From: Candidatus Saganbacteria bacterium
GTDB taxonomy: Bacteria > Margulisbacteria > WOR-1 > O2-12-FULL-45-9 > XYB2-FULL-48-7
Direction of reading: 5' to 3'
DNA: 64,000 nt
Assembly (NCBI GenBank): GCA_016939335.1
Contig: JAFGHC010000030.1
Span: forward strand, 15,230-79,229
Shown: positions 7,268 to 59,861 of the stretch, one piece after another
Layout of the letters: every line of letters begins with the position of its first letter
Numbering within the stretch: position 1 is the first letter of the stretch
The notes under the pieces: model-generated
Told to the model about the DNA's origin: nothing
Databases searched by the model: none
Seen by the model: the letters and a program-made list of their open reading frames with translations, nothing else
Translations under genes and position numbers: made by a program

Positions 7268-8419
7268 TCATATTATCACCTTCAGCCCGCCGCTCACAAA
7301 AGTGGCAACATTTTGAACGATGTCAGAATACTGACCCTTAATAGTAGCCGCGATCTCCGCCGAATATTCCGGGCACATGATCAAAATCGCATTAACGGGA
7401 TCCTCCCGCAAATGCTGGGGCGGAAAAATCCCGAGGCCGGCCGCCGGTGAGAACCTCCCCTGCTTGACCGGCGAGGAATCAACAATATATGAAAGCTTCC
7501 CCGCGATGCCCGAAAAGGCAATGACGCTGAACGCGAGATGGCTGGCCCCCCAGACCGCGGCGCGCCCGCCGCCGCCCGTGACCGTCCGCAGATAGTCGTT
7601 GATCCGGGCCTTGAACTTGTCGCCTTTCCCCCTGGCCGCGGTCAGATCGCACCGCCGGCGCTTGCCGACGTACGCGGCAACAACGTTCAGCTCCTTGTTC
7701 TTGAATATCTCAATGACCCCCAGCCCGTTAAGGGCCAGCGTATTACGCAGAGTGTCCGCCGAAAAATACGACAGGTGATCGCTCATAAAACTGAAAATAT
7801 AATTATCGCTCAATTCGTACTCGAAGTCCGGCACGTTGATCAGGCCGACGCCGTTCTCGCTCAGCAATCCGGCGGCCGAGCGGAGAAACGCGCCCGGCTC
7901 GGGGGCGTGTTCAAGCACATTGATGGAAACGAATGCATCAAACCTTAAGCCGCCGGGCGGCCCGGACAGGTCGGTCGGATACCCCGGGAACGTTTTCAAG
8001 CCCTTGCTGTTCGCGAACTCGCAAAATTCCCGGTGATGTTCCAGCCCAAAGGCGTTGACCGGCAGCTCTTTCAAAATCCCGAGATACTCGCCGCGCCCCG
8101 ACCCGAACTCGATCACGTTCTTATTCGCGAGCGAGAACCGGTCGACGAACTTCTTGAACTGATCATGCTGTCTGGCTCTCATGGAAGCGGAGACGCCGCC
8201 CGGCCTGATCACATCCTTGTAATACGGGACCGGCTCGTTGGTCAGCTGCACCAGCCCGCAGCAGGAGCACTGCCTGACGTCGAGCACGGCGCCGGCCGCG
8301 ACCGCCGCGGCCCGGCTGGCCGGCAGGTTCTGCACGGCTTTCGGCATCTCCGGCAGCTGGAGCAGGCTTTCGTCCTTCAGCACATTACCGCAAACCCGGC
8401 ATTTTTTTACCCCGGTCAT
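7268..8419 (-). CDS. NDP-hexose C-methyltransferase (TylCIII/NovU-like; zinc ribbon + class I MTase + C-terminal C-MT domain)
   Basis: 383 aa; N-terminal CRVCGN..CSCCG zinc-ribbon, central EFGSGRGEY SAM-binding motif, C-terminal domain typical of sugar C-methyltransferases. Confidence 0.65.
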   Translation of the reverse strand: MTGVKKCRVCGNVLKDESLLQLPEMPKAVQNLPASRAAAVAAGAVLDVRQCSCCGLVQLTNEPVPYYKDVIRPGGVSASMRARQHDQFKKFVDRFSLANKNVIEFGSGRGEYLGILKELPVNAFGLEHHREFCEFANSKGLKTFPGYPTDLSGPPGGLRFDAFVSINVLEHAPEPGAFLRSAAGLLSENGVGLINVPDFEYELSDNYIFSFMSDHLSYFSADTLRNTLALNGLGVIEIFKNKELNVVAAYVGKRRRCDLTAARGKGDKFKARINDYLRTVTGGGGRAAVWGASHLAFSVIAFSGIAGKLSYIVDSSPVKQGRFSPAAGLGIFPPQHLREDPVNAILIMCPEYSAEIAATIKGQYSDIVQNVATFVSGGLKVII

Positions 8420-9606
8420 TTGGACACCCCTCGCATGTTCTGCCCCGCGGGAGCGAGCTTCAGGGAATCGCTCGTGTTGCCGTCGCAGTGGTCGCAGGCG
8501 CGCAAAAAGGCCGTCTCAAGGAAGAACGCCCGCAACCGCTCTTGCGCGGCGGCCCGGTCCGGGCCCAGAGCGGAAATCCTGAGCGCGTCAGCCGGGTAGT
8601 CCGGGATTAGCCCGGTCTTTGTCCCGTGCGAAGAGCGCGGACAATGGTACAGCACCCCATCGAGCAATTCGGCGCACGAGTTGAAGTTGCACTTTGCGAA
8701 CAGTTCCTTGAGCTGCGCTTCGGTGCGGCGCCTTGGTTCGAAGCCGCCGAGGTCCGCCCACGCCCAGTGCCGGTTGACCCGGAAGTCGATGCCGTGGCGC
8801 CGCAGGGCCTCCGTCAGCGGCGCCAGTTTGCCTGACAGCTCTCCGTAGTCGTCAATGACCACTGACACTTTATCATGCTTCAACGATTCGAGCTCCCTTT
8901 CGGCCGGCACCACAGTGCCGTTGGTGACCACATCAAGATGGAGCACTTTCCCCGAATCAAGCAAATGCCTGGCGATCGGCGCGAAATCTTTGTGCAGGAA
9001 CGGCTCGCCCCCGAGGAGCTCGACGTGGTAAATGAGATCAACACCGGACAATATCCCGTCAAGAGCCGCGATCACCTCGGACGTATCGGAATCGGCCGGC
9101 TTACGGTAATGCGGCATCAGGCTGGAACAATGCCGGCATTTCAGCGTGCAGCGCGTCGTGATGACGACGTTCAGGCGGGGAACATGCAGATCGCCCGCCG
9201 GGAACTCCATCATTTCAGCCAGCTGGCCGATCTTGGCCAGGTGCCACATGATCTTTTCGAGGCTGGCCCGCGGCGTTCGCCGGAAATCGATGCAGCCGAT
9301 AACATCCGAATCGCTGAATACATCATTAAATCCCGCGGCCGCCAGCTGCCGGCTTATCTCATTAAAATACCGTCCGGCGGCGACAATCACCAGCGCGGCG
9401 GGATAATCGGCGCGCAGCCGCTCAAAAGAGATGACCGGATAGCCGTGGAACGGTTCGTTCTGCTTGCGCGCGTCGTTATCGCAGAACGCCGCCGGCTTGA
9501 TATTCAAGATCTCAAGCGAATCAAGGACTATTTTGCCGATGACCGACGCCCCGAAGATAACGACGGGGCGGGAAGTTCCCGAGACGGCCTGGAGGAATTT
9601 ATTCAC
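8416..9606 (-). CDS. Radical SAM/SPASM protein with N-terminal NeuD/PglD-N-like Rossmann domain
   Basis: 396 aa; VVIFGASVIGKIVLDSLEILNIKPAAFCDNDARKQ..VIVAAGRYFNEI resembles the N-terminal domain of PglD/NeuD-type enzymes, followed by TTRCTLKCRHCSS radical SAM motif and C-terminal Cys cluster (CNFNSC..C..CDHCDG); paralog of 1..1266. Confidence 0.65.
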   Translation of the reverse strand: MNKFLQAVSGTSRPVVIFGASVIGKIVLDSLEILNIKPAAFCDNDARKQNEPFHGYPVISFERLRADYPAALVIVAAGRYFNEISRQLAAAGFNDVFSDSDVIGCIDFRRTPRASLEKIMWHLAKIGQLAEMMEFPAGDLHVPRLNVVITTRCTLKCRHCSSLMPHYRKPADSDTSEVIAALDGILSGVDLIYHVELLGGEPFLHKDFAPIARHLLDSGKVLHLDVVTNGTVVPAERELESLKHDKVSVVIDDYGELSGKLAPLTEALRRHGIDFRVNRHWAWADLGGFEPRRRTEAQLKELFAKCNFNSCAELLDGVLYHCPRSSHGTKTGLIPDYPADALRISALGPDRAAAQERLRAFFLETAFLRACDHCDGNTSDSLKLAPAGQNMRGVSK

Positions 9607-10583
9607 GTCAGCGGCCTCCCGAGCACGTCCGGGGAAACCCCCTCAAGATCATCGATGGCGTACTCGTCGACCAGGAACGAGCAGTTCCGGCAGCTCTCGT
9701 TCTCGCGCCGCCTTTTTTCGAGCTGCAGGCGCCAGAATTCGCGCACCCGCTTCCCGCCCCAAATGGCGGAGATCTTTTCGGTCAGGGCGTTGCCCACGCA
9801 GGTGTTCCCCCGCCAGTCGGGGTCGCACATGATGACGTCGCCGTTGAAATGAACGCTCATCATTTTGAACGGCTGGGGGCAGACCTCCCGCCGCACCGGC
9901 CCGTCGGCGCCGGCCAGCCAGTGATGGGGCTTTTCCAGCGCCGCCTCATCGGCGATGTCCGAATATTCCTTCAGAAAAAGATCGTTCTCCGCCGGCTCAC
10001 CGCTTTCCAGCATTTTCACGTAGATGAACGGCCGCGCGGCGCCGGCCGCCGCGCGCAGCTCTCTTAACGCGGCGATGTTGTCCCTGATCGTTCTGACACT
10101 GGTCCGGCCCTGCGTCAGCGCCTCATGCTTTTTCTGATCGACCGCATAGATCGAACAGCGCAGGTAATCCAGCCCGGCATCGATCAGCTCCCGCGCGACC
10201 CGCGGGGTAAGCAGCGCCGCGTTCGTCGTGATCTCGAGCCGTTCGGCCAGACCGAGCTCTTTGCAATATTTCACCATCGCGGGGGTGGCGGGATTGAGCA
10301 GCGGCTCGCCGAAGCCGATGATCCGGACCACCTTTATTTTGGCGCCCGGCCAGGCCGCCAGGTCGTCCGCGATCATTTTAAAATCTTCGAATTTCATGTA
10401 TCCCCTTGGCAGATAGGAATGGAAGTCCGGCTCGTTCTGGAAACAGCAGCGGCATTTGAAATTGCAGACGCTGGCCGGCTCAAACAGGATGGTGAACGGC
10501 TTCGCCAGCGGGATCGCGTCGCGCAGGCTGACCCGTTTTTCCTTGAGGGCCGAATATTTTTCTTGACTACTGAATGTAATCAT
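9603..10583 (-). CDS. Radical SAM/SPASM(twitch)-domain protein, paralog C
   Basis: 326 aa; EPASVCNFKCRCC motif, C-terminal Cys-rich CPQPFK..C..C..CRNC; same family as 1289..2299 and 4360..5370. Confidence 0.7.
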   Translation of the reverse strand: MITFSSQEKYSALKEKRVSLRDAIPLAKPFTILFEPASVCNFKCRCCFQNEPDFHSYLPRGYMKFEDFKMIADDLAAWPGAKIKVVRIIGFGEPLLNPATPAMVKYCKELGLAERLEITTNAALLTPRVARELIDAGLDYLRCSIYAVDQKKHEALTQGRTSVRTIRDNIAALRELRAAAGAARPFIYVKMLESGEPAENDLFLKEYSDIADEAALEKPHHWLAGADGPVRREVCPQPFKMMSVHFNGDVIMCDPDWRGNTCVGNALTEKISAIWGGKRVREFWRLQLEKRRRENESCRNCSFLVDEYAIDDLEGVSPDVLGRPLT

Positions 10584-11679
10584 CCTTCTCCGTAAAGATC
10601 TCGCGGTAGTCGACCGGCAGCGGTTTGCCGTAGAACCGCGACATGTACTTGTCGATAAAGGCCCGGTCCTCTCCCGCCAAACAGATCGGGGAGCGGTTCC
10701 CGAAATACTTGATCTTCAGCCCGCGGTCGACGATCGTCTTGAGCGGTTCATCCAGAACATTGCCGATGGTGATATGCATGAAGACGCAGGGAAAGACGTC
10801 GCCGTATTGCGAGATATGAAAGCAGCCCTTCAGCGCGCCGCAGCCGCCGCGCATCCCGTACGATGGGAAAACATCGCGCCGGGCCGCCGGATATTTCTGG
10901 TTGAGCTCGCGGAGGAATTTGGCGTCCTCCGCGTCGATCAGGACGTCGTGGCGCCCTTCCCACTGCCCGAGCGCCTTGGCAATGACCAGATCGAGGGAAA
11001 AACCGTTCTCCTGGGCGAACTGCGCCAGCTTGACCGTCGCGTCAGTCCGGGCGTTCTGGTGCGTGATGACATGCTGAATGATCGTGTCGAGGCCGGCGTT
11101 CTTGGAATTCCAGATCGCGGCGATCGCCTTGCCGTACGCGCCGTCGCTGGCGCGGTTCGCGTTATGCAAGGCCTCGTCGTAGCTGTCGAGGCTGATCATC
11201 ACCTTGTCCAGCCCGGCCGCTTTCAGATGCTTCGCCTTTTCCGCCGTCAGGAAATAGCCGTTCGTGCTGATCCCGATATGGAATTTTTCCGGCATCAGCG
11301 CCCGCAGCACTTCGTCGAAGTTCTTCAGGATCAGCGGCTCGCCGCCGGAAACGTTGAACTGGCACCAGCCGAGCGCGTCGGCCTGTTCGGCGATGCTGCG
11401 CAGGTCCGCGAGGGTCAGCGAGCGGTCCTTCTTCTGGAACATATTGGCCATGCAGTGCTTGCACTTGAGGTTGCAGGCGTAGTTGTACCCGATGTCGATC
11501 CGGGAAGTTGGCTCCCCGCGCGCCTGTTTCTCCGCCAGCTTGATGATCTTCTCGTACACCAGCGGTTTTTCTCTTTTTAATTTTTCACGCTTGGCATTTT
11601 CAATCGCTTTTTTTAAATCATGATCTGACATTTGTCCCTCCCGGCTATTTATTATTAATGTACTCTCTATACATTTCAT
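10567..11679 (-). CDS. Radical SAM/SPASM-domain protein (distinct family, PqqE/anSME-like)
   Basis: 370 aa; GYNYACNLKCKHCMA CxxxCxxC motif; C-terminal GGCGALKGCFHISQYGDVFPC SPASM-like cluster; true start may be the internal Met MSDHDL. Confidence 0.7.
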   Translation of the reverse strand: MKCIESTLIINSREGQMSDHDLKKAIENAKREKLKREKPLVYEKIIKLAEKQARGEPTSRIDIGYNYACNLKCKHCMANMFQKKDRSLTLADLRSIAEQADALGWCQFNVSGGEPLILKNFDEVLRALMPEKFHIGISTNGYFLTAEKAKHLKAAGLDKVMISLDSYDEALHNANRASDGAYGKAIAAIWNSKNAGLDTIIQHVITHQNARTDATVKLAQFAQENGFSLDLVIAKALGQWEGRHDVLIDAEDAKFLRELNQKYPAARRDVFPSYGMRGGCGALKGCFHISQYGDVFPCVFMHITIGNVLDEPLKTIVDRGLKIKYFGNRSPICLAGEDRAFIDKYMSRFYGKPLPVDYREIFTEKDDYIQ

Positions 11680-12151
11680 GGACCTTTAAAAGATTTTCCG
11701 GGGCCCGGCTGAAAAAATCGTACATACCTGGCCGAGGCTCCCCCCCATGATATTTCAATTGCGACAACGGGCCGGTGACCAGCTTACAGCGATAGAGAAA
11801 GGAAATGGCGTGCCCCCGCTCGCGCATTGTCTTCGTGATGTGCTCGTAAGTCACTATCGGTTGGGCCTCAAAATCAATTTCACAGCCCAATTCAAGTTCT
11901 GCCACCTTGACGATTCGCTCGCGGGCAAGCTCCTGGAAGCGGATGATGCCGCCGGGAATGTGCCAGCCGCGGCCATGGTAGATGTCATCGCGCCACGTCA
12001 GGAGCACCCTGCCCTGATCGTCCTTGATCAGGAGATCGACGTTGACCATCGGGGTCAGGCCCGACAGCAGGAGAAAGACCGGCTCCGGCAGCCCCTGGCG
12101 CGGATCTTGGCACTCAGCCGCCAAAACCTTGATCGCTTCGTCAAGCTTCAT
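11645..12151 (-). CDS. NUDIX-family hydrolase (GDP-mannose mannosyl hydrolase-like)
   Basis: ORF track gives 11645..12214. The preferred start is the ATG at 12151 (MKLDEAIKVL), which overlaps the upstream TGA as ATGA. Degenerate Nudix-box-like GGIIRFQELARERIVKVAELELG. Confidence 0.45.
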   Translation of the reverse strand: MKLDEAIKVLAAECQDPRQGLPEPVFLLLSGLTPMVNVDLLIKDDQGRVLLTWRDDIYHGRGWHIPGGIIRFQELARERIVKVAELELGCEIDFEAQPIVTYEHITKTMRERGHAISFLYRCKLVTGPLSQLKYHGGEPRPGMYDFFSRAPENLLKVHEMYREYINNK

Positions 12152-12615
12152 GGCTGTTCCGCCTCCCCGATATATTCCAGCAGTTCCAGGAGGCAGCCAG
12201 CGCCACCGGCGCACTTGAGCTGCCGGTTGGCAACCGCCTTGACCGCCGGGACGGCATTGGCCGGACAGACCGCCAAACCGGCCAGCTTCATGGCCGCAAC
12301 ATCATACTTGCCATCCCCAACAAAGCAGATCTCTTCCCGCGTTGTTTTGGTCTGGAAGCGTATCTCGTTCAGGGCGGCCGCCTTATCCTTGCAGCCGCTG
12401 TAAAAAAAATCGGGCTGGAAGCGATCTCTGATCACTTTCGCGATCGACGTGGACTCGCCGGTGATCACCCCCACCTTCAACCCGCGCCGCTTCAGCTCAA
12501 AGATCGCGTCAATATCCCTGTAGTCTATGGTCTTGAACTCATTGCCCGACGAATCGAAAGTGACCTTGCCGTCCGTCAGCACGCCGTCAATATCCATCAC
12601 CACTATTTTAATCAT
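12148..12615 (-). CDS. KdsC-family HAD-IIIA sugar-phosphate phosphatase (Kdo-8-P/KDN-9-P phosphatase-like)
   Basis: 155 aa; VMDIDGVLTDG motif I, GDGKYD motif, size and motifs match the KdsC family. Confidence 0.7.
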   Translation of the reverse strand: MIKIVVMDIDGVLTDGKVTFDSSGNEFKTIDYRDIDAIFELKRRGLKVGVITGESTSIAKVIRDRFQPDFFYSGCKDKAAALNEIRFQTKTTREEICFVGDGKYDVAAMKLAGLAVCPANAVPAVKAVANRQLKCAGGAGCLLELLEYIGEAEQP

Positions 12616-14380
12616 CTTTGCTCACCGCCATGTTCTCCTCCAGTTCCTCGGCCGGCAGATCGGGCCACATCTCCTCCAGCGGCTTCGACGCCATTCCGCC
12701 GCCGGGCAGCTTCATCGCCCGCACCCTGGGCATGACCGGCTGATCGCTTCTGACCTTAAGGCGGCAGAGAACAGGTTCAGCCCCCGTCAAGACTTCCGCG
12801 ATCCCGGTTTTCAGATCCTGACCGCTCATTATCTCCGCCGGCCGCAGCTTGTACGCCCTGGCGACGGCGCAAATATCGGGCAACGTGAACCCGCTTGAGG
12901 CGTCCGCGCCGACGATGAAGCCGTTGAACATGTTCCGCTGGGTGTTGGCGATGCTCGCATAGCCGCCGTTGTCCAGGATGAACATCTTGAGCGGCAGCCG
13001 CAGCCGGCGCACCGTTTCCAGCTCCTGAAGATTGAGCTGAAAGGCGCCGTCGCCGTTGATCAGGACCGTGCGGCGCCCGCCCAGCGCCAGGCAAGAGCCG
13101 ATCGCGTAAGGCAGACCGAACCCCATCGAGCCGAGGCCCGCCGCATTTTTGACGCTCTGGCCGAACTTGACCCTCAGCGCCTGATAGGTCACCTCGCCGG
13201 CCGCGCCCGAACTTTCGGGCACTATTATGTCATCTGGTTTAAGCTGGCGGCAAAGTTCCGCAGTGAACCGGTAGAGATCGACCCCGTCAGCCGGCTCCGC
13301 GCCGTCATTCACTTCGGGATAACGCTTCTTCAGCCGCGCGCAATGGGCCAGCCACTCCGCATGGTCCGGCAGCTTGATCGTCAGCTCTGTCAACGCGCTC
13401 ACGGCCGTCTTGACATCAGCAATGACCCTTAAGTCCACATTCTCGATCTTATTGATCTCGGCCGCGTCAATGTCGATCATGATCTTGGACGCGTTGCGGC
13501 CAAAATCCCGACTGTTGAAGGCGGTCAGGCTCGGATCGAGCCGGCTGCCGAGGACCAGCAGCAGGTCGCAGGTCTGGACGATAAAATTCGCGTACCGGCT
13601 CCCCAGGATGCCGGGGAAGCCGAAATTAAGCGGATGATCATAGCCGAGGAAATCGGCTGTTTTCCAGGTCAGGACCATCGGGACCCGGTGCTTCTCCGCA
13701 AAATTCCTGACGGCCGCCGAGGCGCCGGAAAGTTTCACTCCGTTGCCGACGAGGATCAGGGGGCGTTTTGAACGTTCCAGCGCGGCAACGATCCGGTCGA
13801 GCGGGAGCTTTGGCTCAGGCGGCGCCGGTTTAACGTAACCCTGTAAAACATTTTCATCGACCATGGCCCCCTGCACGTCAAGGGGAATATCCAGCCAGAC
13901 CGGCCCCATCCGCCCCGTGGTCGCCTCGTGCCACGCCTTTTCGAGATGGAACCGCACCTCCCCTGGTTCCATAATGGTCACCGCGTACTTGGTGATGCAG
14001 CTGACCATGGAGATGATATCCACTTCCTGCGAGCCCATCTGCCGCACGCCGCTCTTCCCCTTAAGGTCGGAACGCTTTGCCTGGCCCGAGATGAACACGC
14101 ACGGTGTCGAATCGATATAAGCGGCGGCCACGGCGGTGATCGTATTCGTGCTCCCCGGGCCGGAAGTGACCAGTCCGACGCCGGGGCTGTTCAGATGCTG
14201 GCCGTGCGCTTCGACCGCGATCGCCAGGGCCTGTTCGTGGAAGAAACAGGTGTATTTCAGCTTCGGGCAGCGCCCCAGCGAATCGACCAGGTGAATAGCG
14301 CCGCCGCCGGGGAGCATGTACACCATCGTTATCCCCCGCGACACCAAAAAATTCATTATATAATCAGAAACTTTGATCAT
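12608..14380 (-). CDS. Thiamine-diphosphate-dependent enzyme, acetolactate-synthase-large-subunit fold (YerE-like sugar branching enzyme candidate)
   Basis: 590 aa; three-domain AHAS-like layout, TPP motif GDGAFQLN..(x25)..LDNGGY; embedded in the sugar operon. Confidence 0.7.
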   Translation of the reverse strand: MIKVSDYIMNFLVSRGITMVYMLPGGGAIHLVDSLGRCPKLKYTCFFHEQALAIAVEAHGQHLNSPGVGLVTSGPGSTNTITAVAAAYIDSTPCVFISGQAKRSDLKGKSGVRQMGSQEVDIISMVSCITKYAVTIMEPGEVRFHLEKAWHEATTGRMGPVWLDIPLDVQGAMVDENVLQGYVKPAPPEPKLPLDRIVAALERSKRPLILVGNGVKLSGASAAVRNFAEKHRVPMVLTWKTADFLGYDHPLNFGFPGILGSRYANFIVQTCDLLLVLGSRLDPSLTAFNSRDFGRNASKIMIDIDAAEINKIENVDLRVIADVKTAVSALTELTIKLPDHAEWLAHCARLKKRYPEVNDGAEPADGVDLYRFTAELCRQLKPDDIIVPESSGAAGEVTYQALRVKFGQSVKNAAGLGSMGFGLPYAIGSCLALGGRRTVLINGDGAFQLNLQELETVRRLRLPLKMFILDNGGYASIANTQRNMFNGFIVGADASSGFTLPDICAVARAYKLRPAEIMSGQDLKTGIAEVLTGAEPVLCRLKVRSDQPVMPRVRAMKLPGGGMASKPLEEMWPDLPAEELEENMAVSKDD

Positions 14381-15228
14381 TATTCGTGAGACTCCAGGCG
14401 GATATGCGATCTTAATTTTTTGGCGATCGGCACTTCTTTCTCCTGCATTTTCTTGACGCCATCCCCCATCGCCTTTTCGATCTTCCGCAGCCCGCCGATC
14501 ATCTGGACAAAGGTGGCCGGCTCCAGCGAAACCGCCTGATCGGAGCCGTACATGGCGCGGTCAAGCGTGATGTGCCTCTCCAGCGAGGTGATCCCAAGGG
14601 CGGCGGCGGCGTAGGAAACCGCGATCCCGCCCTCATGGCCGCTGTAACCGACGTCGCAACGGTAACGGTCGCGCAAGAGCGGGATACAATTCAGGTTGGC
14701 GTCCTCGTCATTGGTCGGATAGGTGGAAACGCAATGCATCAGCTCGAAAGGGCAATTCGCCTTCTTGAATATCTCCACCGCCCGGTCGACCATCTCGAGG
14801 TCGCACATCCCCGTGGAGATAAAAGTATGTTTCCGTTCCGCAGCGACCTGGCGCAGCAATTCCAGGTCGGGCATCATGGCCGAGGCGACCTTGTTATGTT
14901 TCAAGTTATACTGGTGCAGGAACGCCTGGCTCTCCCGGTCCCAGGCGGAAGCGAACCATTCGATCCCCTTCTCCCTGCAATAGCGATCGATCTCGTCATA
15001 TGCCGCCCGGCCAAGCTCCAAACCCAACTTTTGCTCCCGGGTGGTCGTCCCCCAGGGGCTTTCCCGGGGCTTGTCCAGTTCTTCTTTCGAATAAACCTTT
15101 TCGACCGTCCGTTTCTGGAACTTAACGGCATCGGCCCCGGCCACCTTCGCCACATCGATCAGCTGTTTGGCGATCTCGACGCTCCCGTTATGATTGATCC
15201 CGATCTCCGCAATAACAAAGATCCTCAT
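14380..15228 (-). CDS. NeuB-family sialic acid synthase-like aldolase (short, apparently lacking the C-terminal SAF domain)
   Basis: 282 aa; N-terminal IAEIGINHNGS signature of NeuB/PseI/LegI PEP-condensing synthases; about 60 aa shorter than canonical NeuB. Confidence 0.65.
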   Translation of the reverse strand: MRIFVIAEIGINHNGSVEIAKQLIDVAKVAGADAVKFQKRTVEKVYSKEELDKPRESPWGTTTREQKLGLELGRAAYDEIDRYCREKGIEWFASAWDRESQAFLHQYNLKHNKVASAMMPDLELLRQVAAERKHTFISTGMCDLEMVDRAVEIFKKANCPFELMHCVSTYPTNDEDANLNCIPLLRDRYRCDVGYSGHEGGIAVSYAAAALGITSLERHITLDRAMYGSDQAVSLEPATFVQMIGGLRKIEKAMGDGVKKMQEKEVPIAKKLRSHIRLESHE

Positions 15229-15251: not shown

Positions 15252-18023
15252 TCAAACCGCCCTTTGACAAAAACCCCTGATCTGGTCGAGCGCATAATCG
15301 ATCATCTCCCCGGTCAGGCCCGGATAGACACCGATCCAAAACGCCTGCTTCATGACCAGATCGGTATTCTTTAATTCCCCCGCGACCCTATACCCTTGCT
15401 CCTTGCCCCTCATCTCGTCAAAACACGGATGCTTGACCATATTGCCGGCAAAAAGCATCCGGGTCTGGATCCCTTTCGATTCAAGGGATCTAACTATTTC
15501 GTCCCGGGAAAAGCCGGCCCGCTCTTTTACGGTCAAAAGAAACCCGAACCAGCTCGGCTCGGAGTTTTCCGCCGCTTCCGGCAGGACAAAAACACTCTTC
15601 AGCTCGTCCAGGCCCCGGCGGAGTTTCTCCCAGTTCTTCCTCCTGGCGGCAATGAAATTTGGGAGCTTCTCGAGCTGGGCGCAGCCGATGGCCGCCTGCA
15701 GATCGGTGGCCTTCAGGTTATAACCGAAATGAGAATAAACATACTTATGGTCGTACCCGTACGGCAAGGCGCCGAACTGTTGGGTAAATCGTTTACCGCA
15801 AGTGTTGTCCTTACCCGAAGGACACGAGCAATCCCTCCCCCAATCCCTGAACGACTCGACATTTTTCTTGAGCTGCGGGTCGTTGGTGTAAACCGCCCCG
15901 CCCTCCCCCATGGTATTATGCAAAAACACTCCCAGGAAACCACCATAAAAGTTTTCTTTCCCAGGCACTGAAAAATCATAAACATATTCATTTTCCCCAT
16001 AATTGATTTCTTGTATGCTTCTGATCTTTAAAAAGCCGACCTCCCCTGCAACCACCTTCAGTAAATCACTATTTGAAACAATATATTTTGCTAGCCGCTT
16101 TCTGGAAATCGTCTTTTGCCCTTTGCCAATACTTATATAATTCCTAAAGACATCCAACAGCGGGGCTTGAAGGGCAACATTGTTCCGTTCCTTCTTGTTC
16201 TGCTTGACGATGGATTTCCCCCGGTAAATATAACCGCTAAAACTAAGCGTATAGTTGTCTTGCGAGGTTGTCCAATTATTCCCGATCTTCTTTTTTTTAC
16301 CGATATTTCTCCTATAAAAAGAAGCGCTTATCCCCACCCTGGACAACAAGTATTGAAAATCATTTAACAAATCCAGGGAAACGCTGGTGACATCGATATG
16401 ATTCGTATTGCCGGCCCTTTTTCTTTCCGAACCGTCTCCCTTTGTGTATCCATATATAAAAGCTTTAATGCATTTTTCATCGCCGTGATAAATAAACCAT
16501 GGTATGCGCTTGTTCTTTGCTCCTTTTTTAATCGCAAAAATCTCCGAAAAGACAATCTCAACATTTTTTGATTGGACTTCGATAACGGCTGAATTCCCCG
16601 CCTCTCTGACGGCGACTGATAAACCGAACAACGCTTTAATAAGACGTTTGACATCATTGATCAAATCGCGCTCTTTCTTGTGAAAAGAGAAAACTAAACC
16701 GTTTTGGTATGCTCCTTCAGCAATAAAATAACCGATCAGGCGGAACAGCTCTTCATTGACCGGCAGTCGAGCGGGGATCTTGCGTGATTGCGCGATCCCA
16801 ACCAGTAATTCTTCTTTTTTCAGATCATACATTTTCAAGTACTTGATCGGTAAAGTATTTCTGTCCTTGAATTGCCATCGCTGGTCGGCCTTCTTGACAT
16901 ATTTAAGATTAAAACGCGAGAAACCCGACACATAAGCATCCTTGCCAAAAAAAGGCTCGAGAATATTTATAGAATCGATTTTCCCCGGGCTGGGGATCTC
17001 ACTAGTAACAACAATATAATCATTTTTGCCTATCAACCCTGCCTGCTTCGGCACTATTTTCGCAGAATTTTTATCCAACACAAAGACACTATGATCTTCC
17101 GTAACTTCAACTCGTCTGCCATGTTGACAGACTATTTTCATCATTTTCTTTTGTCCTAACTTATGTCTCAAAATAGAAGCGGGAATTGTCCATCTAACCT
17201 TATTGTCTTTATCAAACGACAAAACCTGGATTTTTTCAGGCTGATCAACATAAAGCTCGAATATTCTATCAATCCTGTCAACTCGCCAGCTTCCCTTTTC
17301 ATCCAAGTATGGAATTGGAGTGTTTTTTGAGCAACTCATATGGTGCGGCGGATAAAAGCTGGAAGTGCCGAGATCGCCAAAAGTTCCCGTATAACCCCAT
17401 TGGCCGTTCAAATTGTATCTCGAGCCCAAAGAATCACAATTGTCCTCGATCAGCCAGAGCTCATGCTCCTCGCAGAATTTCTTGACCCGGCCGACGTCAA
17501 AGGGGTTCCCCAGCGTGTGCGCCAGCATGACCGCCTTTGTTTTTTCCGATAAAGCCTTTTTAAGCTGGCGGCAATCGATGTTATAGCCCGGCAGCGTGAT
17601 GTCGGCAAAGACCGGGACCGCCCCAAACTGGATGATCGGGGCAATGGTGGTGGGAAAGCCGGCCGCCACCGTGATGACCTCATCGCCGGGCTTGATCCGC
17701 CGCGCGCCGAGTTCCGGCACGGTCAGCGCCATAAACGCCAACAGGTTGGCCGAAGAGCCGGAATTCACCAGCGAGCAATATTTGACGCCCAGAAATCCGG
17801 CCAGGCCCTGCTCGAATTTCTCCGCGTACCTGCCCATGGTCAGCCAGAATTCGAGGGAAGAATCGACCAGGTTCCCGATCTCTTTTTCATCGAAGACCCG
17901 GCCGGCGTAGGGAATGCGCTCACCGGGCACCCATGGCCTTTTCTTGTGATTAACCCTGTAATATTCTAGTGCGGCCTTGACGGCCTTTGCTCTTAATTGA
18001 TCCTCGTTTCTTTCGCTACACAT
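15252..18023 (-). CDS. ddhC: CDP-4-keto-6-deoxy-D-glucose 3-dehydrase (E1; DdhC/RfbH, DegT aminotransferase fold) interrupted by a LAGLIDADG intein
   Basis: 923 aa, versus about 430 aa for typical RfbH. The N-extein ends GDLGTSSFYPPHHM(S) and the C-extein resumes TMGEGGAVYTNDPQLKKNVESFRDWGRDCSCPSGKDNTCGKRF, collinear with the Salmonella RfbH motif SFYPAHHITMGEGG..FRDWGRDCYC. Confidence 0.85.
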   Translation of the reverse strand: MCSERNEDQLRAKAVKAALEYYRVNHKKRPWVPGERIPYAGRVFDEKEIGNLVDSSLEFWLTMGRYAEKFEQGLAGFLGVKYCSLVNSGSSANLLAFMALTVPELGARRIKPGDEVITVAAGFPTTIAPIIQFGAVPVFADITLPGYNIDCRQLKKALSEKTKAVMLAHTLGNPFDVGRVKKFCEEHELWLIEDNCDSLGSRYNLNGQWGYTGTFGDLGTSSFYPPHHMSCSKNTPIPYLDEKGSWRVDRIDRIFELYVDQPEKIQVLSFDKDNKVRWTIPASILRHKLGQKKMMKIVCQHGRRVEVTEDHSVFVLDKNSAKIVPKQAGLIGKNDYIVVTSEIPSPGKIDSINILEPFFGKDAYVSGFSRFNLKYVKKADQRWQFKDRNTLPIKYLKMYDLKKEELLVGIAQSRKIPARLPVNEELFRLIGYFIAEGAYQNGLVFSFHKKERDLINDVKRLIKALFGLSVAVREAGNSAVIEVQSKNVEIVFSEIFAIKKGAKNKRIPWFIYHGDEKCIKAFIYGYTKGDGSERKRAGNTNHIDVTSVSLDLLNDFQYLLSRVGISASFYRRNIGKKKKIGNNWTTSQDNYTLSFSGYIYRGKSIVKQNKKERNNVALQAPLLDVFRNYISIGKGQKTISRKRLAKYIVSNSDLLKVVAGEVGFLKIRSIQEINYGENEYVYDFSVPGKENFYGGFLGVFLHNTMGEGGAVYTNDPQLKKNVESFRDWGRDCSCPSGKDNTCGKRFTQQFGALPYGYDHKYVYSHFGYNLKATDLQAAIGCAQLEKLPNFIAARRKNWEKLRRGLDELKSVFVLPEAAENSEPSWFGFLLTVKERAGFSRDEIVRSLESKGIQTRMLFAGNMVKHPCFDEMRGKEQGYRVAGELKNTDLVMKQAFWIGVYPGLTGEMIDYALDQIRGFCQRAV
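15915..17333 (-). other. Intein (473 aa) with LAGLIDADG homing-endonuclease domain inside ddhC
   Basis: It begins with Cys (CSKNTPIPYL) directly after HHMS. Block B is VEVTEDHSVFV (TxxH). The two LAGLIDADG motifs are LIGYFIAEGAY and FIYGYTKGDG. Blocks F/G are VYDFSVPGKENFYGGFLGVFLHN, followed by +1 Thr. The intein DNA is AT-richer than the exteins. The N boundary could shift one residue (Ser230). Confidence 0.85.
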
Positions 18024-19737
18024 TATTGTTCACCCGCCCCAAGCCAACCGCTCGCTTGAGCGAATTAAGCGCCTGATTAAATGCCCCGCGGATCAGATAT
18101 CTTCTTGGCCAGATTTGCTCATAAAATCTATACGAAAGCACTGGCATTAAAGTGTACACGGCCAGTAAAACATTGAGCGTGAACTTGAACAAGCTCGACG
18201 ATAAAAAGAAGCGGCGTGCGCAGGCGCGGCAATACATCATCGCGAAATAATAGTATTTTGATTTAAGCACATAATTCCCATAGTGGCTGACTGTTTTACA
18301 ATGAGGGCATTCGACCGAAAGCGAAAATGTCCCATCCTTCGCTTTCGCCGCCTTCCATTTTTTGGCATAGACACGGTCCTTAATAACCGCCTTGTTTATC
18401 TCATACCATAAACGCGCGAACGCCCGGTCCGTCAGGCTATCGCTCATGTTAAAAAGGCCGAAGATCCGGTTCTCGATGAAATCAATTTTATCTTTGATAA
18501 TCCCTTTTCCCAGGCATTTCTGATAAAGCGGGGTGCCCGGATAAGGGCTAATAAAGTTCAACATTATGCCCGCCTCCCGGTTCGCTTTCCAGTAGCTCAA
18601 AGTTTCTTTGATCGTTTGCCTGGTCTCGGCCGGATCGCCAAAAATAAAATTAGCCTGAAGGCTGATCTTATTCTTCAGGGTCAGCCTGACCGCCCGGTCA
18701 ATCTGTTCGGCGGTAATGCGCTTTTTCATGCTCTTGAGAACAGCCGGGCTATAACTTTCGAAACCATAACTTATTGAATAACAACCCGCTTCCTTCATGG
18801 CCTTCAACGTTGGCTCATCTAATTTATCAACCCGCATCTGACAACCCCATTTACATGGCCAGCTGATTTCTTTTAGCAGGATTTTGATCTGCCGGCAGAA
18901 TTCAGCCAGCCATTCCCGATCGTCGGAGAACAACTCGTCATAAATCCAGATCAGGTTAATGCGGTAGCGTTTTACCATGGCTGATAATTCTTCCATTATC
19001 GATTTAATAGATCGCTGCCGGTACTTTTGGCCGATCGGATGGTAGCAAAAAGTGCACGAATAGGGGCAAGAGCGGCTGCAGATGATGGGATAAACTCTCG
19101 GCTGATCAAATAATTCCATCCCGAAGTAGTCGGAGGGGCGCATTTTCTCCAGATACTTATCATATTCAAATGATTCGAAATCCGGCCAGGGGAGTGAATC
19201 AATGTCCGCTATCGGCGCACGAGCCTTCGTCAGAATGATCTGACCGGCTTGATCACGATAACCGATGCCCGCGACCCTGCCAATCTCCCCCTGCTTCTCA
19301 AGGTATGAGATAAGCTCACAGATCGTTTCTTCTCCTTCGCCCAGAACGATAAAGTCCGGGCTTAAAACAGAAAACATCAATTCCGGCTCACTGGAGATCA
19401 AGCCGCCCCCCAAAATCAATTTGATCTCCGGCTGACCGGCATGGAAAGCTTCGACCACCGCTTTGATCTGACGGTAGCTGGTCGAGATCCCCCCCGTGCA
19501 GGCAACCTCGAAGGGCCCGTGCTTCTTAATATAATTATTGAGCAGTTCCGGAATGGCCCCGTAATAATGGTTAAGGTTAAAACAGGCCACCTGATGCCCG
19601 GCTTGTTTCAAGACGGAAGAAAGATACGCCAGCCCCAGCGGGAACATATAATTATAGTTCTCCGCTTCTTCCAGCCGCATACGCGGGACAACGATCAATA
19701 TCCTCATTTCATATATTCCTCGATCTGCTGCCAGCAT
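18016..19737 (-). CDS. B12-binding (class B) radical SAM enzyme
   Basis: 573 aa; N-terminal B12-binding-like domain (RILIVVPRMRLEE..MFPLGLAYLSSVL), radical SAM motif CSRSCPYSCTFCYHP. Confidence 0.7.
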   Translation of the reverse strand: MLAADRGIYEMRILIVVPRMRLEEAENYNYMFPLGLAYLSSVLKQAGHQVACFNLNHYYGAIPELLNNYIKKHGPFEVACTGGISTSYRQIKAVVEAFHAGQPEIKLILGGGLISSEPELMFSVLSPDFIVLGEGEETICELISYLEKQGEIGRVAGIGYRDQAGQIILTKARAPIADIDSLPWPDFESFEYDKYLEKMRPSDYFGMELFDQPRVYPIICSRSCPYSCTFCYHPIGQKYRQRSIKSIMEELSAMVKRYRINLIWIYDELFSDDREWLAEFCRQIKILLKEISWPCKWGCQMRVDKLDEPTLKAMKEAGCYSISYGFESYSPAVLKSMKKRITAEQIDRAVRLTLKNKISLQANFIFGDPAETRQTIKETLSYWKANREAGIMLNFISPYPGTPLYQKCLGKGIIKDKIDFIENRIFGLFNMSDSLTDRAFARLWYEINKAVIKDRVYAKKWKAAKAKDGTFSLSVECPHCKTVSHYGNYVLKSKYYYFAMMYCRACARRFFLSSSLFKFTLNVLLAVYTLMPVLSYRFYEQIWPRRYLIRGAFNQALNSLKRAVGLGRVNNNV

Positions 19738-20750
19738 TTTTTTCTAACGTCTTCGCCGCGCTGATAGGGTCTGGTCCATTCAATCACTTTAGCCAGCGCT
19801 TCTCCGAGGCGGTATTTCGGCCGCCATTTTAATTGCTTTTTTGCCTTGGAATTATCTAATCTCAAACAAGCCGTTTCATGAGGCTGCTGGCCGCACTCAA
19901 TTATATAAGCGGCTTCTCCGCCCCAGACCCGGCATAACTCTTTGACAAGCCATTCGACCGATCTAGCGTCACTGTCGTCCGGCCCGAAATTCCAGGCCCC
20001 GGCATATTTATCGCCGCTCCGGTACAACTTCTCGGCTAAAATCAGATAGCCCATTAACGGCTCCAAAACATACTGCCAGGGACGCGTGGCTTTGGGGTTC
20101 CTGATTTTAATTCTTTCGCCTTTTAAAACCGCCCGGACAAAATCCGGAACCAATCTGTCAACCGCCCAGTCCCCTCCCCCGATCACATTCCCGGCCCGGG
20201 CGGTCGCGACGTTCATCCCGTATGACCGCCGGTAAGCCTGGGCGACAAGTTCCGAGCACGCTTTGCTGCTCGAGTAAGGATCATGCCCTCCTAATGCGTC
20301 AGTTTCTTTAAAACCCGCGTCCCTCATCCCCCGTACCCCAGACCTGATCTCGTACACCTTATCCGTCGTCACATTGACGACCGCCCGGACGCTTTTACCG
20401 GCCCTGGCCGCCTCAAGCACGTTGACCGTCCCCATCACATTGACTGCGAAGGTCTCGCTCGGTACCTTATATGATTCTCTCACGATCGGCTGGGCCGCCA
20501 TGTGGATCACGATCTCCGGCTTGGCAGCTGACATGGCCTTTTTCAGCGACTTGGAATCCCTTACGTCAGCAATCACCGAACTGACCAATTCATCAACCTT
20601 ACATAAATTAAATAGGCTCGGGTTGGTCGGCGGACGCAGGGCATAGCCGGTCACTTTCGCCCCGAGCAGGCTTAGCCAGAGGCAAAGCCAGGAGCCCTTA
20701 AAGCCGGTGTGGCCGGTAATAAACACCCTTTTCTTGCGCCAGAATTCCAC
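19704..20750 (-). CDS. rfbG: CDP-glucose 4,6-dehydratase
   Basis: 348 aa; GTG start with AAGGGGG Shine-Dalgarno; RVFITGHTGFKGSWLCLWL..HMAAQPIVRESY..NVMGTVNVLEA collinear with Salmonella/Yersinia RfbG/DdhB. Confidence 0.85.
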   Translation of the reverse strand: MEFWRKKRVFITGHTGFKGSWLCLWLSLLGAKVTGYALRPPTNPSLFNLCKVDELVSSVIADVRDSKSLKKAMSAAKPEIVIHMAAQPIVRESYKVPSETFAVNVMGTVNVLEAARAGKSVRAVVNVTTDKVYEIRSGVRGMRDAGFKETDALGGHDPYSSSKACSELVAQAYRRSYGMNVATARAGNVIGGGDWAVDRLVPDFVRAVLKGERIKIRNPKATRPWQYVLEPLMGYLILAEKLYRSGDKYAGAWNFGPDDSDARSVEWLVKELCRVWGGEAAYIIECGQQPHETACLRLDNSKAKKQLKWRPKYRLGEALAKVIEWTRPYQRGEDVRKKCWQQIEEYMK

Positions 20751-21250: not shown

Positions 21251-21338
21251 TTGTTTAATTGTTTAATTGTGATTTGTTTAATTGTTTAATTGTGATTTGT
21301 TTAATTGTTTAATTGGGTTTTGTTTAATTGTTTAATTT
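21251..21338. repeat. Array of about 8 TTGTTTAATT units (24-nt super-unit TTGTTTAATTGTTTAATTGTGATT twice, plus variants)
   Basis: Direct tandem repeats read from sequence; inverted relative to the 20763-20846 array; overlaps the 3' end of rfbF. Confidence 0.8.
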
Positions 21339-22113
21339 ATCCCCAAACCTTCCAGGCCGCCTGGCCCGACCGCCAGAGCTCTTCAAGCATATTTTTCTCC
21401 CTCAAAGTATCCATCGGCTGCCAGAAACCGTTATGTTTATAGGCCATCAATTGGCCTTCCTTGGCCAGCCTTTTTACCGGCATGTTCTCAAAGGCCATCT
21501 GATCCCCCTCGATATAATCGATGACTTTCGGATCCAGGACAAAAAAGCCGCCGTTGATCCAGGTATAGTTCCCCTCGGTCTTCTCCAGGAATCTCTCCAC
21601 GGTATTTTCTTTGCTGATCCGCAAGGCGCCGAACCGTCCGAGCGGCCTGACGGCGGTCACGGTCGCCAGCTTGCCGTGGGCGCGATGAAAGTCCAGTAAT
21701 TCCTTAAGGTTAATATCGGCAACGCCATCGCCATACGTGAACATAAAAGGTTCGTTACCAAGGTACTCCTTCACCCTTTTCAGCCGGCCGCCGGTCTGGG
21801 TCTCCAGCCCCGTATCGACCAGGGTCACCTCCCAGGGCTCGGCCGTATGGCTATGAATAACTTTCTTTTCGCCTTTATTGAAATTAAAAGTGACATCAGA
21901 TTCATGCAAAAAATAATTCCTGAAATACTCTTTAATCAGGTACCCTTTATAGCCGACGCAAATGACAAACTCATTAAAGCCGTAATGAGAATATCCCTTC
22001 ATGATATGCCAGAGGATCGGTTTTTCACCGATATCAAGCATCGGCTTTGGCTTGAGATAAGATTCCTCGCCGATCCTTGTCCCCTGCCCGCCCGCCAAGA
22101 TAACGACTTTCAT
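21337..22113 (-). CDS. rfbF: Glucose-1-phosphate cytidylyltransferase
   Basis: 258 aa; [76 protein letters not shown] nearly collinear with Salmonella RfbF ([39 protein letters not shown]..). Confidence 0.9.
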   Translation of the reverse strand: [258 protein letters not shown]

Positions 22114-23628: not shown

Positions 23629-24713
23629 TAAATGCCCAGCACTTCCTTGAGGCCGATCGGCTCGCCTTTGACCTGCCGGCGGTAAACACCGCGCATCAGT
23701 TTCCAGATAAAACCAGGGATAAATACCAGAGGGACAATTTTCAGCCAGAACATGGGATGCGTCCAGTAGACCCTGAAGAGGAAAGGCAGAATATCCCCGA
23801 TAAAGCGCCGGGGATTTTCTATCCTTAACCTGACCGCCCAGGAAAAGCCATCATTTCTAATAACCAGTTCATCAATTAAGCGAATATACTTTTTGTCCTC
23901 AAAAACAGCGCTGGAAACTTTCCGATAAATCGAAACATCCTGTCTCAGCCGCAACTCAGCAAAAGGCAGGGATTTCCACTGCTCAAGCTCGGGCGTCCCT
24001 TCCTTGCCCCACCGCCTTTTGACCAGAGGCGCCGGCAGGTACTTAATCGTTCCCGGCTCGCCCCCCCACAGGAGCGCCTGAAAAACATAAAGATGCAGAT
24101 AAAAAGTGCCTGTAAACTCCTCTTTACCCCTGACGCGCAGCCATTTTTCCCGGAGAAAAATGATGTTCGAAATATAATTGCAATAAGCGATCAGCTTCTT
24201 ATTCGCCTTAAAATACCGGTCGACTTCCTCCTTTCGGGAAAAATCAAAGGTCTCCGCCCGGACGAACGGCATGATCTTGCGCCGGCGCATCGGCCGGTCC
24301 GGAGTTAAATAGAAATCCTCTTTTTCTCCCAGATAAAGATCTACCTGATCCTCCCCCTCCAATTCCCGCAAAACACTTTTCAGCGCCCCCGGGGCAAGCA
24401 GGTCATCCGAGCCTAACAGCCAAATATACCTGCCAAGAGCGCGCCCTACCAGCAACTGGAAATTATTGTCCATGCCAACATTCTTTTCGTTTTTAAAATA
24501 TTTGACCGTTAGTTTTGTGCTTGCTTTTATCTTATCTATTACCGCATCGGTCGAATCGGTCGATGCGTTGTCAGAGATGAGAACCTCAAAGTCACCGGCC
24601 TTTACTTCGGCTGCCTGCGCCAAAATGCTGGCCACTGCTTCCTGCAGCGTCTCCGCCCGATTGTAGGTCGGGATACAAATCGACAGCAACGGCTGTTTTT
24701 GTTCAGAACTCAC
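23628..24713 (-). CDS. Family 2 glycosyltransferase (copy 1)
   Basis: 361 aa; LLSICIPTYNRAETL..LISDNASTD (GT2 DxD-type N-terminal domain); paralog of 26686..27750. Confidence 0.75.
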   Translation of the reverse strand: MSSEQKQPLLSICIPTYNRAETLQEAVASILAQAAEVKAGDFEVLISDNASTDSTDAVIDKIKASTKLTVKYFKNEKNVGMDNNFQLLVGRALGRYIWLLGSDDLLAPGALKSVLRELEGEDQVDLYLGEKEDFYLTPDRPMRRRKIMPFVRAETFDFSRKEEVDRYFKANKKLIAYCNYISNIIFLREKWLRVRGKEEFTGTFYLHLYVFQALLWGGEPGTIKYLPAPLVKRRWGKEGTPELEQWKSLPFAELRLRQDVSIYRKVSSAVFEDKKYIRLIDELVIRNDGFSWAVRLRIENPRRFIGDILPFLFRVYWTHPMFWLKIVPLVFIPGFIWKLMRGVYRRQVKGEPIGLKEVLGI

Positions 24714-26679: not shown

Positions 26680-26685
26680 AGCTTT

Positions 26686-29195: not shown

Positions 29196-29198
29196 GTT

Positions 29199-58912: not shown

Positions 58913-59006
58913 TTATCGTCCTTTCTATGTCAATGAGAATAAGGCAACTTTTTAACTCTTTTTATTTTTAATTTTTTATTCTTAATTTTTTATTTTTGAT
59001 TTTATT

Positions 59007-59402: not shown

Positions 59403-59411
59403 ATTGCCTCC

Positions 59412-59852: not shown

Positions 59853-59861
59853 CGTTTTTTA

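Follow-up and report, generated by a model that had tools for sequence, protein, structure and literature searches.

Three consecutive genes on the minus strand of a 64,000-nucleotide stretch of an uncultured Candidatus Saganbacteria genome (contig JAFGHC010000030.1; hereafter the window) are best read as one functional unit within a cytidine diphosphate (CDP)-sugar operon that would build a long acyl-branched deoxyhexose, a reading which draws on sequence and gene context. The genes are predicted to encode a NeuB-family phosphoenolpyruvate (PEP)-dependent ulosonate synthase that lacks the SAF domain (14380..15228), a YerE/JanthE-like thiamine diphosphate (ThDP)-dependent carboligase (12608..14380), and a HAD-IIIA phosphatase of the KdsC/KDN-9-P phosphatase type (12148..12615). 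In the scheme that we favour, with somewhat better than even confidence, the NeuB-like protein and the phosphatase would make a 3-deoxy-2-ulosonic acid, and the ThDP enzyme would decarboxylate it and add it to C4 of CDP-4-keto-3,6-dideoxyglucose. The initial annotation of this DNA had proposed a sugar made by PEP condensation inside the CDP-sugar pathway. The part of that proposal which places the genes functionally in the CDP-sugar cluster stands; however, the evidence does not favour PEP condensation on a CDP-sugar intermediate, and points to a free ulosonic acid, which would be made separately and then serve a YerE-like carboligase as acyl donor for a CDP-keto-sugar.

The synthase is a protein of 282 aa without a SAF domain, as had been annotated. 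PF03102 spans it (model positions 1-241 of 241, E 1.2e-69), and Pfam finds neither a second domain nor any match to the SAF/antifreeze-like domain. Of the 329 positions of the NCBIfam NeuB model the protein matches 1-277, and its scores stay under the equivalog cut-offs of NeuB (TIGR03569, 252.4 vs 399.65) and PseI (TIGR03586, 185.3 vs 340.25). Its alignment to the solved N. meningitidis NeuB (1xuu, 349 aa) comprises residues 21-273, the TIM barrel only. The AlphaFold (AF2) model is likewise a TIM barrel (pLDDT 83), which in Foldseek superposes on the barrels of NeuB, PseI, and SpsE with TM values of 0.78-0.81, the value being 0.81 for 6ncs, 8h2c, and 1xuu. The best solved relative is 6ncs, a SAF-less enzyme of 290 aa from Leptospira borgpetersenii (~31% identity). 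The fold and the conserved motifs are those of canonical NeuB/PseI/LegI, whereas the C-terminal SAF/antifreeze-like domain, which in N. meningitidis NeuB gives Arg314 to the neighbouring active site (4ipi and 4ipj are R314 mutants), is absent.

The IAEIGxNHxG, KFQ, SGHE, and ERH motifs are kept in the window protein and align with those of PseI 8h2c and 6ncs. In NeuB enzymes, catalytic or metal-binding roles are assigned to the Glu of IAEIGxNH, to KFQ, to the His of SGHE, and to ExH. Across 161 distinct short-NeuB homologues, which come from 165 loci and are 275-292 aa long, 85 positions are at least 97% conserved, and these include E8, K36, Q38, H198, E217, H219, and D230. According to conservation and the AF2 model, a short C-terminal helix (265-273), whose R273 is conserved to the same degree, stands in place of the SAF domain. 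All 120 database matches listed for the protein have the NeuB domain only; the majority have exactly 282 aa, and none exceeds 325 aa. One protein, from a Candidatus Saganbacteria metagenome-assembled genome, shows 100% identity to it. The SAF-less NeuB is a member of a large, highly conserved family, normally partnered by a CTP_transf_3 cytidylyltransferase and with a solved relative in 6ncs, and is not an unusual form. Truncation or frameshift of the gene was considered and rejected, as its TAA stop shares one base with the ATG of the ThDP gene (TAATG) and its homologues are uniform in length. No SAF-encoding frame follows either, because the N-terminal ThDP domain of the next gene begins at residue 3.

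The ThDP gene encodes a protein of 590 aa with three ThDP-enzyme domains (Pfam), which lies below every acetolactate synthase (ALS) equivalog cut-off in NCBIfam. Against the PDB it scores 346 bits with 8rph, the JanthE of Janthinobacterium sp. HH01, 284 bits with 5ahk, which we take to be PpYerE, and at most 240 bits with true ALS. The match to JanthE (32% identity, E 6e-112) runs over the full length and takes in the distinctive tail at the C-terminus of that enzyme. By this ranking of sequence similarity, the enzyme is nearer to the YerE-like carboligases than to ALS. The YerE-like carboligases JanthE and PpYerE use ketones as acceptors for decarboxylated alpha-keto acids (PMC12247030, PMC12188165). 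The initial annotation had used the gene only to mark the end of the NeuB reading frame, which does end there; the ThDP enzyme is a conserved, translationally coupled partner of NeuB, probably its key partner, and not a mere boundary.

The third gene overlaps the ThDP gene by 8 nt and encodes a phosphatase of 155 aa, in whose sequence the DxD (MDIDGV) and GDxxxD motifs are visible. Its NCBIfam scores are 103 bits for KDN-9-P phosphatase (cut-off 180) and 92.3 for the KdsC subfamily (cut-off 106.95). The best PDB match is BT1713, the KDN-9-P phosphatase of B. thetaiotaomicron (3e81, 87 bits), and KdsC entries reach 56-67 bits. These matches, though below the curated cut-offs, agree with the annotated pairing of NeuB and a phosphatase of the KdsC type, and such a pairing speaks for a phosphorylated substrate; the enzyme would dephosphorylate an ulosonate phosphate. 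Such chemistry is known from the KDN pathway of B. thetaiotaomicron (BT1714/BT1713) and from the Kdo pathway (KdsD/KdsA/KdsC/KdsB), where PEP and an aldose phosphate give an ulosonate phosphate that is then acted on by a C0-type HAD enzyme. The window differs from both in having neither a CMP-transferase nor an isomerase, in a synthase of the NeuB fold and not KdsA, and in that synthase and phosphatase both stay below the curated equivalog cut-offs. In a Lentisphaerae locus (L169, 11767-13371), a KdsC-like HAD is fused to a sugar C-methyltransferase in a protein of 534 aa encoded directly after the ThDP gene.

The annotated lack of a CMP-transferase is confirmed for the window: CTP_transf_3 is absent among the 50 open reading frames (ORFs) scanned with Pfam. 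A profile built from 123 partner cytidylyltransferases also finds nothing in the six-frame translation of the window (best E 0.94). As this profile missed two of three divergent controls, the Pfam scans are the stronger evidence. The portion of the genome inspected is the window and 4.6 kb past its left edge. That 4.6 kb (contig piece L001) contains only a radical S-adenosylmethionine enzyme (rSAM), two family 2 glycosyltransferases (GT2), and a short-chain dehydrogenase/reductase (SDR), with no CTP_transf_3, and the right flank is housekeeping; on these grounds a neuA or kdsB just outside the window was considered and rejected. Neither a UDP-GlcNAc 2-epimerase nor a true aminotransferase is found in the window, where the DegT-family protein is RfbH (15252-18023) and scores as an E1 dehydrase rather than an aminotransferase. 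The only nucleotidyltransferases are, as annotated, RfbF (21337-22113) and the protein then called RfbA, here RmlA (49174-49908).

Among 165 short-NeuB loci that were collected and onto which reference proteins were mapped by tblastn, 90 have at least 2.5 kb on both sides. CTP_transf_3 lies beside the short NeuB in 75 of the 90, usually immediately downstream, and a ThDP gene is found at +1.3 kb from NeuB in seven, the window included and two of them (L002 and L009) being the same contig. Both partners occur together in none of the 90 and neither occurs in seven. In other words, CTP_transf_3 is present in 0/7 ThDP-linked loci and in 75/83 of the others, about nine in ten. Four of the loci with neither partner were scanned by Pfam at one or two downstream ORFs, and two of them (L038, L040) carry a divergent CTP_transf_3. 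The locus L041 was examined as an independent association of NeuB with a ThDP gene and rejected, since it has a divergent CTP_transf_3 (Pfam) and its ThDP gene is 5.6 kb away; it was reassigned to the CMP-linked loci. In the window, L002, L166, L167, and L168, Pfam annotation and scans likewise find no CTP_transf_3 up to 10 kb away, and the divergent loci L169 and L170 give the same result over that distance.

The ThDP-linked NeuBs are 77-100% identical to that of the window and the CMP-linked ones 62-76%. The former lie on six contigs, namely the window (Saganbacteria), L166 (Elusimicrobia), L167 (Deferribacteres), L168 (equal to L087, unassigned), L002 (equal to L009, Victivallales), and L008 (Planctomycetia). 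The layout is NeuB, then the ThDP gene, usually the HAD, often a Nudix gene, and then an rSAM-rSAM-rSAM-C-methyltransferase-rSAM-SDR-FkbM block, and the stop of NeuB overlaps the start of the ThDP gene in every case. The pair is found at greater distances as well. In L169 (Lentisphaerae) and L170 (Elusimicrobiales), ThDP genes 63-64% identical to that of the window are flanked by a NeuB-only gene 51-57% identical to its NeuB, along with the HAD (the fused form in one of them) and the first two rSAM genes. For 21 of the 34 best ThDP matches, the longest contig is as long as that of a NeuB match, which implies co-location. A metagenome scan gave only two further window-like matches, L087 with the full ThDP-linked locus and L086, a fragment of 1.2 kb.

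The CMP-linked loci share with the window the NeuB-only architecture, exemplified by 6ncs, and frequently a KdsC-like HAD, a SIS_2 isomerase, and an AP_endonuc_2 barrel. In contrast to the window, they carry CTP_transf_3 with an aminotransferase and an SDR, which the clade of the window has lost while gaining the ThDP enzyme. Among 126 CTP-linked loci, truncated ones included, the partners are short-chain dehydrogenase (55), methyltransferase (49), AP_endonuc_2 barrel (45), KdsC-like HAD (37), class III aminotransferase (34), VOC protein (32), SIS_2 isomerase (29), and class IV aminotransferase (28). Only six positions (E50, K53, M146, G200, G246, and S274) are diagnostic between ThDP-linked and CMP-linked NeuBs, too few for a different substrate to be inferred. 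Judged by their sequences, the two groups probably do not differ in the type of compound made: an ulosonic acid, in chemical terms an alpha-keto acid. The CMP-linked cassette itself (L003, L004, and roughly 120 others, among them L029, L034, L048, and L062) is widespread in many phyla and apparently uncharacterised; its presumed product is an amino-ulosonic acid, CMP-activated and derived from a sugar phosphate. For a Leptospira nonulosonic acid (NulO) synthase fused to an AP_endonuc_2-like domain, the same interpretation has been given (PMC3438082).

The genes for a suitable acceptor are located immediately upstream of NeuB in the same operon, all on the minus strand. They encode RfbF, glucose-1-phosphate cytidylyltransferase (21337..22113; TIGR02623, 418 bits vs cut-off 300), RfbG, CDP-glucose 4,6-dehydratase (19704..20750; TIGR02622, 468 bits vs 278), and RfbH, E1 CDP-4-keto-6-deoxyglucose 3-dehydrase (15252..18023; NF011936, 703 bits vs 423, in two stretches). 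The CDP-4-keto-3,6-dideoxyhexose genes have the same place in L167 and L002, where RfbF, RfbG, and RfbH are all present; L168 has only RfbF and RfbG.

Acyl-branched sugars made from such an acceptor are known. The study of Steitz et al. (2022) on erwiniose, caryophyllose, and gastriose found that the YerE-like ErwE, MMAR_2332, and MyGE use hydroxylated C4-C8 2-keto-3-deoxy acid donors and that ErwE does not accept pyruvate; for the making of the keto-acid donors it proposed an aldolase whose gene adjoins the ThDP gene (PMC9306805). CDP-4-keto-3,6-dideoxyglucose is the proposed physiological acceptor of YerE-like enzymes (PMC9306805; review PMC12247030). Like these systems (erwiniose ErwE/F/I/J, caryophyllose MMAR_2331/2332, gastriose MyGE/MygI, and the JanthE locus), the window combines RfbF/G/H for the acceptor with a YerE-like ThDP enzyme, next to whose gene stands a maker, in the window a predicted one, of 2-keto-3-deoxy acids that forms C-C bonds, and SDR genes follow. 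For example, the JanthE locus of Janthinobacterium sp. HH01 reads RfbF-RfbG-RfbH-JanthE-SDR-acetaldehyde dehydrogenase-HMGL/DmpG aldolase-SDR-GT2, the layout of erwiniose, and the window orthologues are 62% (RfbF), 52% (RfbG), and 52-56% (RfbH) identical to its proteins. In the known systems, the YerE-like gene comes directly after RfbH, and the enzyme that supplies the donor is a pyruvate-dependent class II aldolase (BphI/HpaI/citrate-lyase type), in some cases together with acetaldehyde dehydrogenase. By contrast, the cluster genes scanned include neither an aldolase of the HMGL/DmpG or HpcH kind nor an acetaldehyde dehydrogenase, and the only HMGL-like match of the window, at 37.3-37.7 kb, is outside the cluster. 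It is NeuB and the HAD that flank the ThDP gene, holding by position the role of the aldolase in JanthE-type loci. A PEP-dependent NeuB-type synthase with a KdsC-type phosphatase would imply a donor derived from a phosphosugar, longer and more hydroxylated, and the five to seven radical SAM tailoring enzymes have no counterpart in the known clusters. Similarly, the yersiniose A pathway of Yersinia pseudotuberculosis (YerE/YerF) shares the acceptor pathway and the class of branching enzyme; however, YerE uses pyruvate and needs no donor-making enzyme, whereas in the window NeuB and HAD are coupled to the ThDP gene.

The proposed route would begin with two separate arms. RfbF, RfbG, and RfbH, on the strength of their equivalog-level matches, would give CDP-4-keto-3,6-dideoxy-D-glucose. 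The SAF-less NeuB would join PEP to an aldose phosphate, most probably a C4-C6 compound of central metabolism, and so give a 3-deoxy-2-ulosonate phosphate, from which the HAD would strip the phosphate. The alpha-keto acid would not be CMP-activated; rather, the ThDP enzyme would decarboxylate it, and the resulting polyhydroxy-acyl anion would be added to the CDP-keto-sugar at its C4 carbonyl. The SDR, the methyltransferases, and five to seven radical SAM enzymes would then tailor the branch, and the GT2, flippase, and GT-C gene products would export and attach the sugar. In such a route, NeuB and the HAD would replace the pyruvate aldolase (plus dehydrogenase) that feeds the donor in the erwiniose, caryophyllose, and gastriose systems. 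The dephosphorylated NeuB product would fit, because a 3-deoxy-2-ulosonic acid is of the same chemical class as the known donors, the hydroxylated 2-keto-3-deoxy acids. If the ulosonate is spent as a ThDP donor, the absence of the CMP-transferase exactly at the ThDP-linked loci would be explained. The role of NeuB and the HAD as a donor module would also explain the coupling of NeuB to the ThDP gene, the survival of the pair over large divergence, and its place downstream of RfbF/G/H.

The phosphatase gene is followed by a gene for a Nudix-fold protein (11645..12151, minus strand; Pfam NUDIX E 5e-6), apparently an accessory. Its listed start, a GTG at 12214, is probably wrong, because the ATG at 12151 yields an ATGA overlap with the HAD stop; from this ATG the protein has about 168 aa. 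It matches GDP-mannose mannosyl hydrolase weakly (NCBIfam, PDB), and we take its degenerate Nudix box (GGIIRFQELARERIVKVAELELG) to resemble the box of that enzyme. GDP-mannose mannosyl hydrolase cleaves at the sugar C1, not at phosphorus. The gene is present in four distinct ThDP-linked loci (the window, L087/L168, L008, and L002=L009) and was not detected in L006/L166, L007/L167, L169, and L170, that is, in half of them.

Several points speak against the proposed route. The identity between the window ThDP enzyme and JanthE, 32% as given above, is low, and the neighbouring HAD, which is missing from L166, is the sole indication that the NeuB substrate is phosphorylated; this phosphorylation and the chain length of the substrate, like the individual catalytic steps, are put forward from sequence comparison. 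Ulosonic acids are mostly cyclic hemiketals and may be poor substrates for ThDP enzymes. The E3 reductase (RfbI/AscD), the usual partner of RfbH, is absent from the cluster genes scanned, among which no ferredoxin-NADP-reductase-type protein occurs, though it may be encoded elsewhere in the genome. RfbF/G/H are not found within 10 kb in L166, L008, L169, and L170, which makes the proposed acceptor less certain at these loci. The Nudix protein is left without a role. Finally, a CMP-transferase may be encoded elsewhere in the genome, which would be compatible with what the 64 kb of the window present.

This last point leads to the alternative that two independent pathways share one operon. A pyruvate-using YerE would then make a yersiniose-type C2 branch, while NeuB and the HAD would make a free Kdo- or KDN-like sugar for a CMP-transferase encoded elsewhere, e.g., KdsB. 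We consider this unlikely. YerE itself does take pyruvate, most loci of the short NeuB family are of the CMP-linked kind, and the inspection covered 64 kb and the 4.6 kb past the left edge. On the other hand, two unconnected pathways give no reason for the loss of the CMP-transferase exactly where the ThDP gene appears, a loss seen both in the tblastn counts and in the Pfam scans of the window and the six loci L002 and L166 to L170. Nor do they agree with the translational coupling of NeuB to the ThDP gene everywhere and the persistence of the pair over large divergence. It is slightly more doubtful that the ThDP enzyme acts on the ulosonate without branching a sugar, either as a plain decarboxylase, whose product would be a 2-deoxy-aldose with two carbons more than the sugar at the start, or as an ALS-type ligase with the C2 keto group of the ulosonate as acceptor. 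ThDP decarboxylases and ALS do share a superfamily, and L166, L008, L169, and L170 have the core set (NeuB, HAD, ThDP, two rSAM genes) with no RfbF/G/H nearby. Yet the closest characterised relatives of the enzyme are ketone-accepting YerE-like carboligases, the acceptor genes directly precede the pair in the operons of the window, L167, and L002, and it is not apparent how the product of plain decarboxylation would be activated for use by the GT2 and GT-C enzymes.

The Nudix protein offers a role for itself in a further scheme, which we regard as very improbable. It gives concrete form to the general idea of the initial annotation. There, the Nudix protein, with or without the HAD, would free a deoxyhexose from its CDP ester, and NeuB would condense it with PEP, so that a nonulosonic acid, deoxy or branched, would arise within the CDP-sugar pathway. 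The resemblance of its box to that of an enzyme that frees a sugar would suit such a role, and the known routes to Pse and Leg NulOs free the hexose from the nucleotide before the NeuB-type step. However, the gene is missing from half of the ThDP-linked loci (L166, L167, L169, and L170), the product would still require the CMP activation that is missing here, and the ThDP enzyme would be left without a role. Moreover, the CMP-linked NeuBs at 62-76% identity, many of them accompanied by a SIS_2 isomerase or a KdsC-like phosphatase, point to a small phosphosugar as the substrate. Use of the ulosonate as acyl donor by the YerE-like enzyme remains our preferred reading of the cluster.

A wider reading, to which we give a little less than an even chance, is that uncultured bacteria of at least five phyla (Saganbacteria, Elusimicrobia, Deferribacteres, Planctomycetes, and Lentisphaerae/Victivallales) have fused two classical sugar pathways. 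A 7-9-carbon ulosonic acid, formed by PEP condensation of the sialic-acid/Kdo type, would serve not as a sugar but as the acyl donor of a YerE-like enzyme and give a C4-branched 3,6-dideoxyhexose of 12-14 carbons before methylation, which up to seven radical SAM enzymes would remodel, possibly by deoxygenation, C-methylation, or carbocyclisation. If true, the sugar would represent a new class of monosaccharides, NeuB-type enzymes would have a biological use not described before, and a clade of the very large SAF-less NeuB family would gain a first function. The 'unifying scheme' for acyl-branched sugars would gain a second, unrelated donor route, with PEP-dependent NeuB chemistry in place of pyruvate aldolases. 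Candidate phyla that lack known glycan chemistry would have unusually large branched sugars on their surfaces, possibly on their flagella, and biocatalysis would gain a ThDP carboligase that may take long polyhydroxylated keto acids. The kinds of components are already known, and the logic of a keto-acid donor, a YerE-like enzyme, and a CDP-keto-sugar was published in 2022. In the searchable literature, to which a large in-silico survey of YerE-like clusters does not belong (more than 200 clusters, reportedly, by Krug et al. in 2024), we found no link of YerE-like enzymes with NeuB, no NeuB/KdsC-type module as supplier of the donor, and no attached tailoring set rich in radical SAM enzymes.

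The whole glycan cluster is on the minus strand and extends from the left window edge to 29951, beyond which the housekeeping genes tyrS (starting at 30002), aroB, and aroK are found. Transcription begins with the export and transfer genes (22132..29951; Pfam), in the order methyltransferase, two Wzx-like flippases, two GT2, a helix-turn-helix (HTH) regulator, and a PMT_2 GT-C. These are followed by RfbF, a small protein of the 23S-rRNA-IVP type, RfbG, a B12-binding radical SAM enzyme (18016..19737; PF02310 and PF04055), RfbH with an intein, the short NeuB, the ThDP enzyme, the HAD, and the Nudix protein. The position of the B12-binding enzyme between RfbG and RfbH is not conserved in other loci. 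All junctions from RfbG to the C-methyltransferase are overlaps or gaps of at most 23 nt.

The tailoring block proper (Pfam) consists of two radical SAM/SPASM genes (10567-11679 and 9603-10583), a radical SAM gene (8416-9606), and a sugar C-methyltransferase gene (7268-8419). Further tailoring genes (Pfam/NCBIfam) are those for a B12-radical SAM enzyme (5501-7171), an rSAM/SPASM enzyme (4360-5370), an extended SDR (3250-4335), an FkbM methyltransferase (2280-3272), and another rSAM/SPASM enzyme (1289-2299). Of the seven radical SAM enzymes in the cluster, four are of the rSAM/SPASM kind, one carries a C-methyltransferase-like N-terminus, and the remaining two bind B12. No tailoring enzyme, the radical SAM enzymes included, reaches any NCBIfam equivalog cut-off. 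The block 7268..11679 recurs in the same order and with 61-88% identity after the NeuB-ThDP genes of L166, L167, and L168, and its first two rSAM genes recur in L169 and L170 at 34-55% identity. The SDR and FkbM genes are kept in L167 and L168. The SDR is a candidate branch reductase. Of the two SDRs encoded at the JanthE locus, the second is a distant relative (only about 25% identity), and the one directly after JanthE does not match it clearly.

The RfbH gene carries a LAGLIDADG intein of 473 aa (15915-17333, minus strand; Intein_splicing and LAGLIDADG_3 domains). It sits in a conserved RfbH motif with the junctions HHMS|C...HN|TMGEGG, and the spliced product would have 450 aa. The RfbH homologues of L002, L167, and L171 are 441-456 aa long and hence have no room for an intein. 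To our knowledge, an intein in a sugar-modifying enzyme seems unusual. A gene for a small four-helix-bundle '23S rRNA intervening sequence protein' is located between RfbF and RfbG both in the window (20861-21250) and in the Victivallales locus L002 (6487-6840; PF05635 there). The GC content of the cluster is a mosaic, with 56-61% over 8-16 kb (the NeuB-ThDP-HAD-rSAM block) and 41-48% over 4-8 kb and 16-22 kb, and this pattern within positions 1-22000 suggests that the cluster has been put together from parts of differing origin.

A separate rmlB-rmlA pair of the dTDP-glucose pathway (48167-49908) adjoins RNase PH about 20 kb from the cluster and could provide an alternative 4-keto-6-deoxyhexose acceptor. 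The flagellar genes fliH, flgI, flgH, and flgA, together with a sigma factor gene, are found at the right end of the window (56268-63797). In the Deferribacteres locus L167 (1-5846), the sugar cassette comes directly after the flagellin genes, beginning about 1 kb past csrA and downstream of flgK, flagellin, and fliW, which hints at flagellin glycosylation in some carriers of the cassette.

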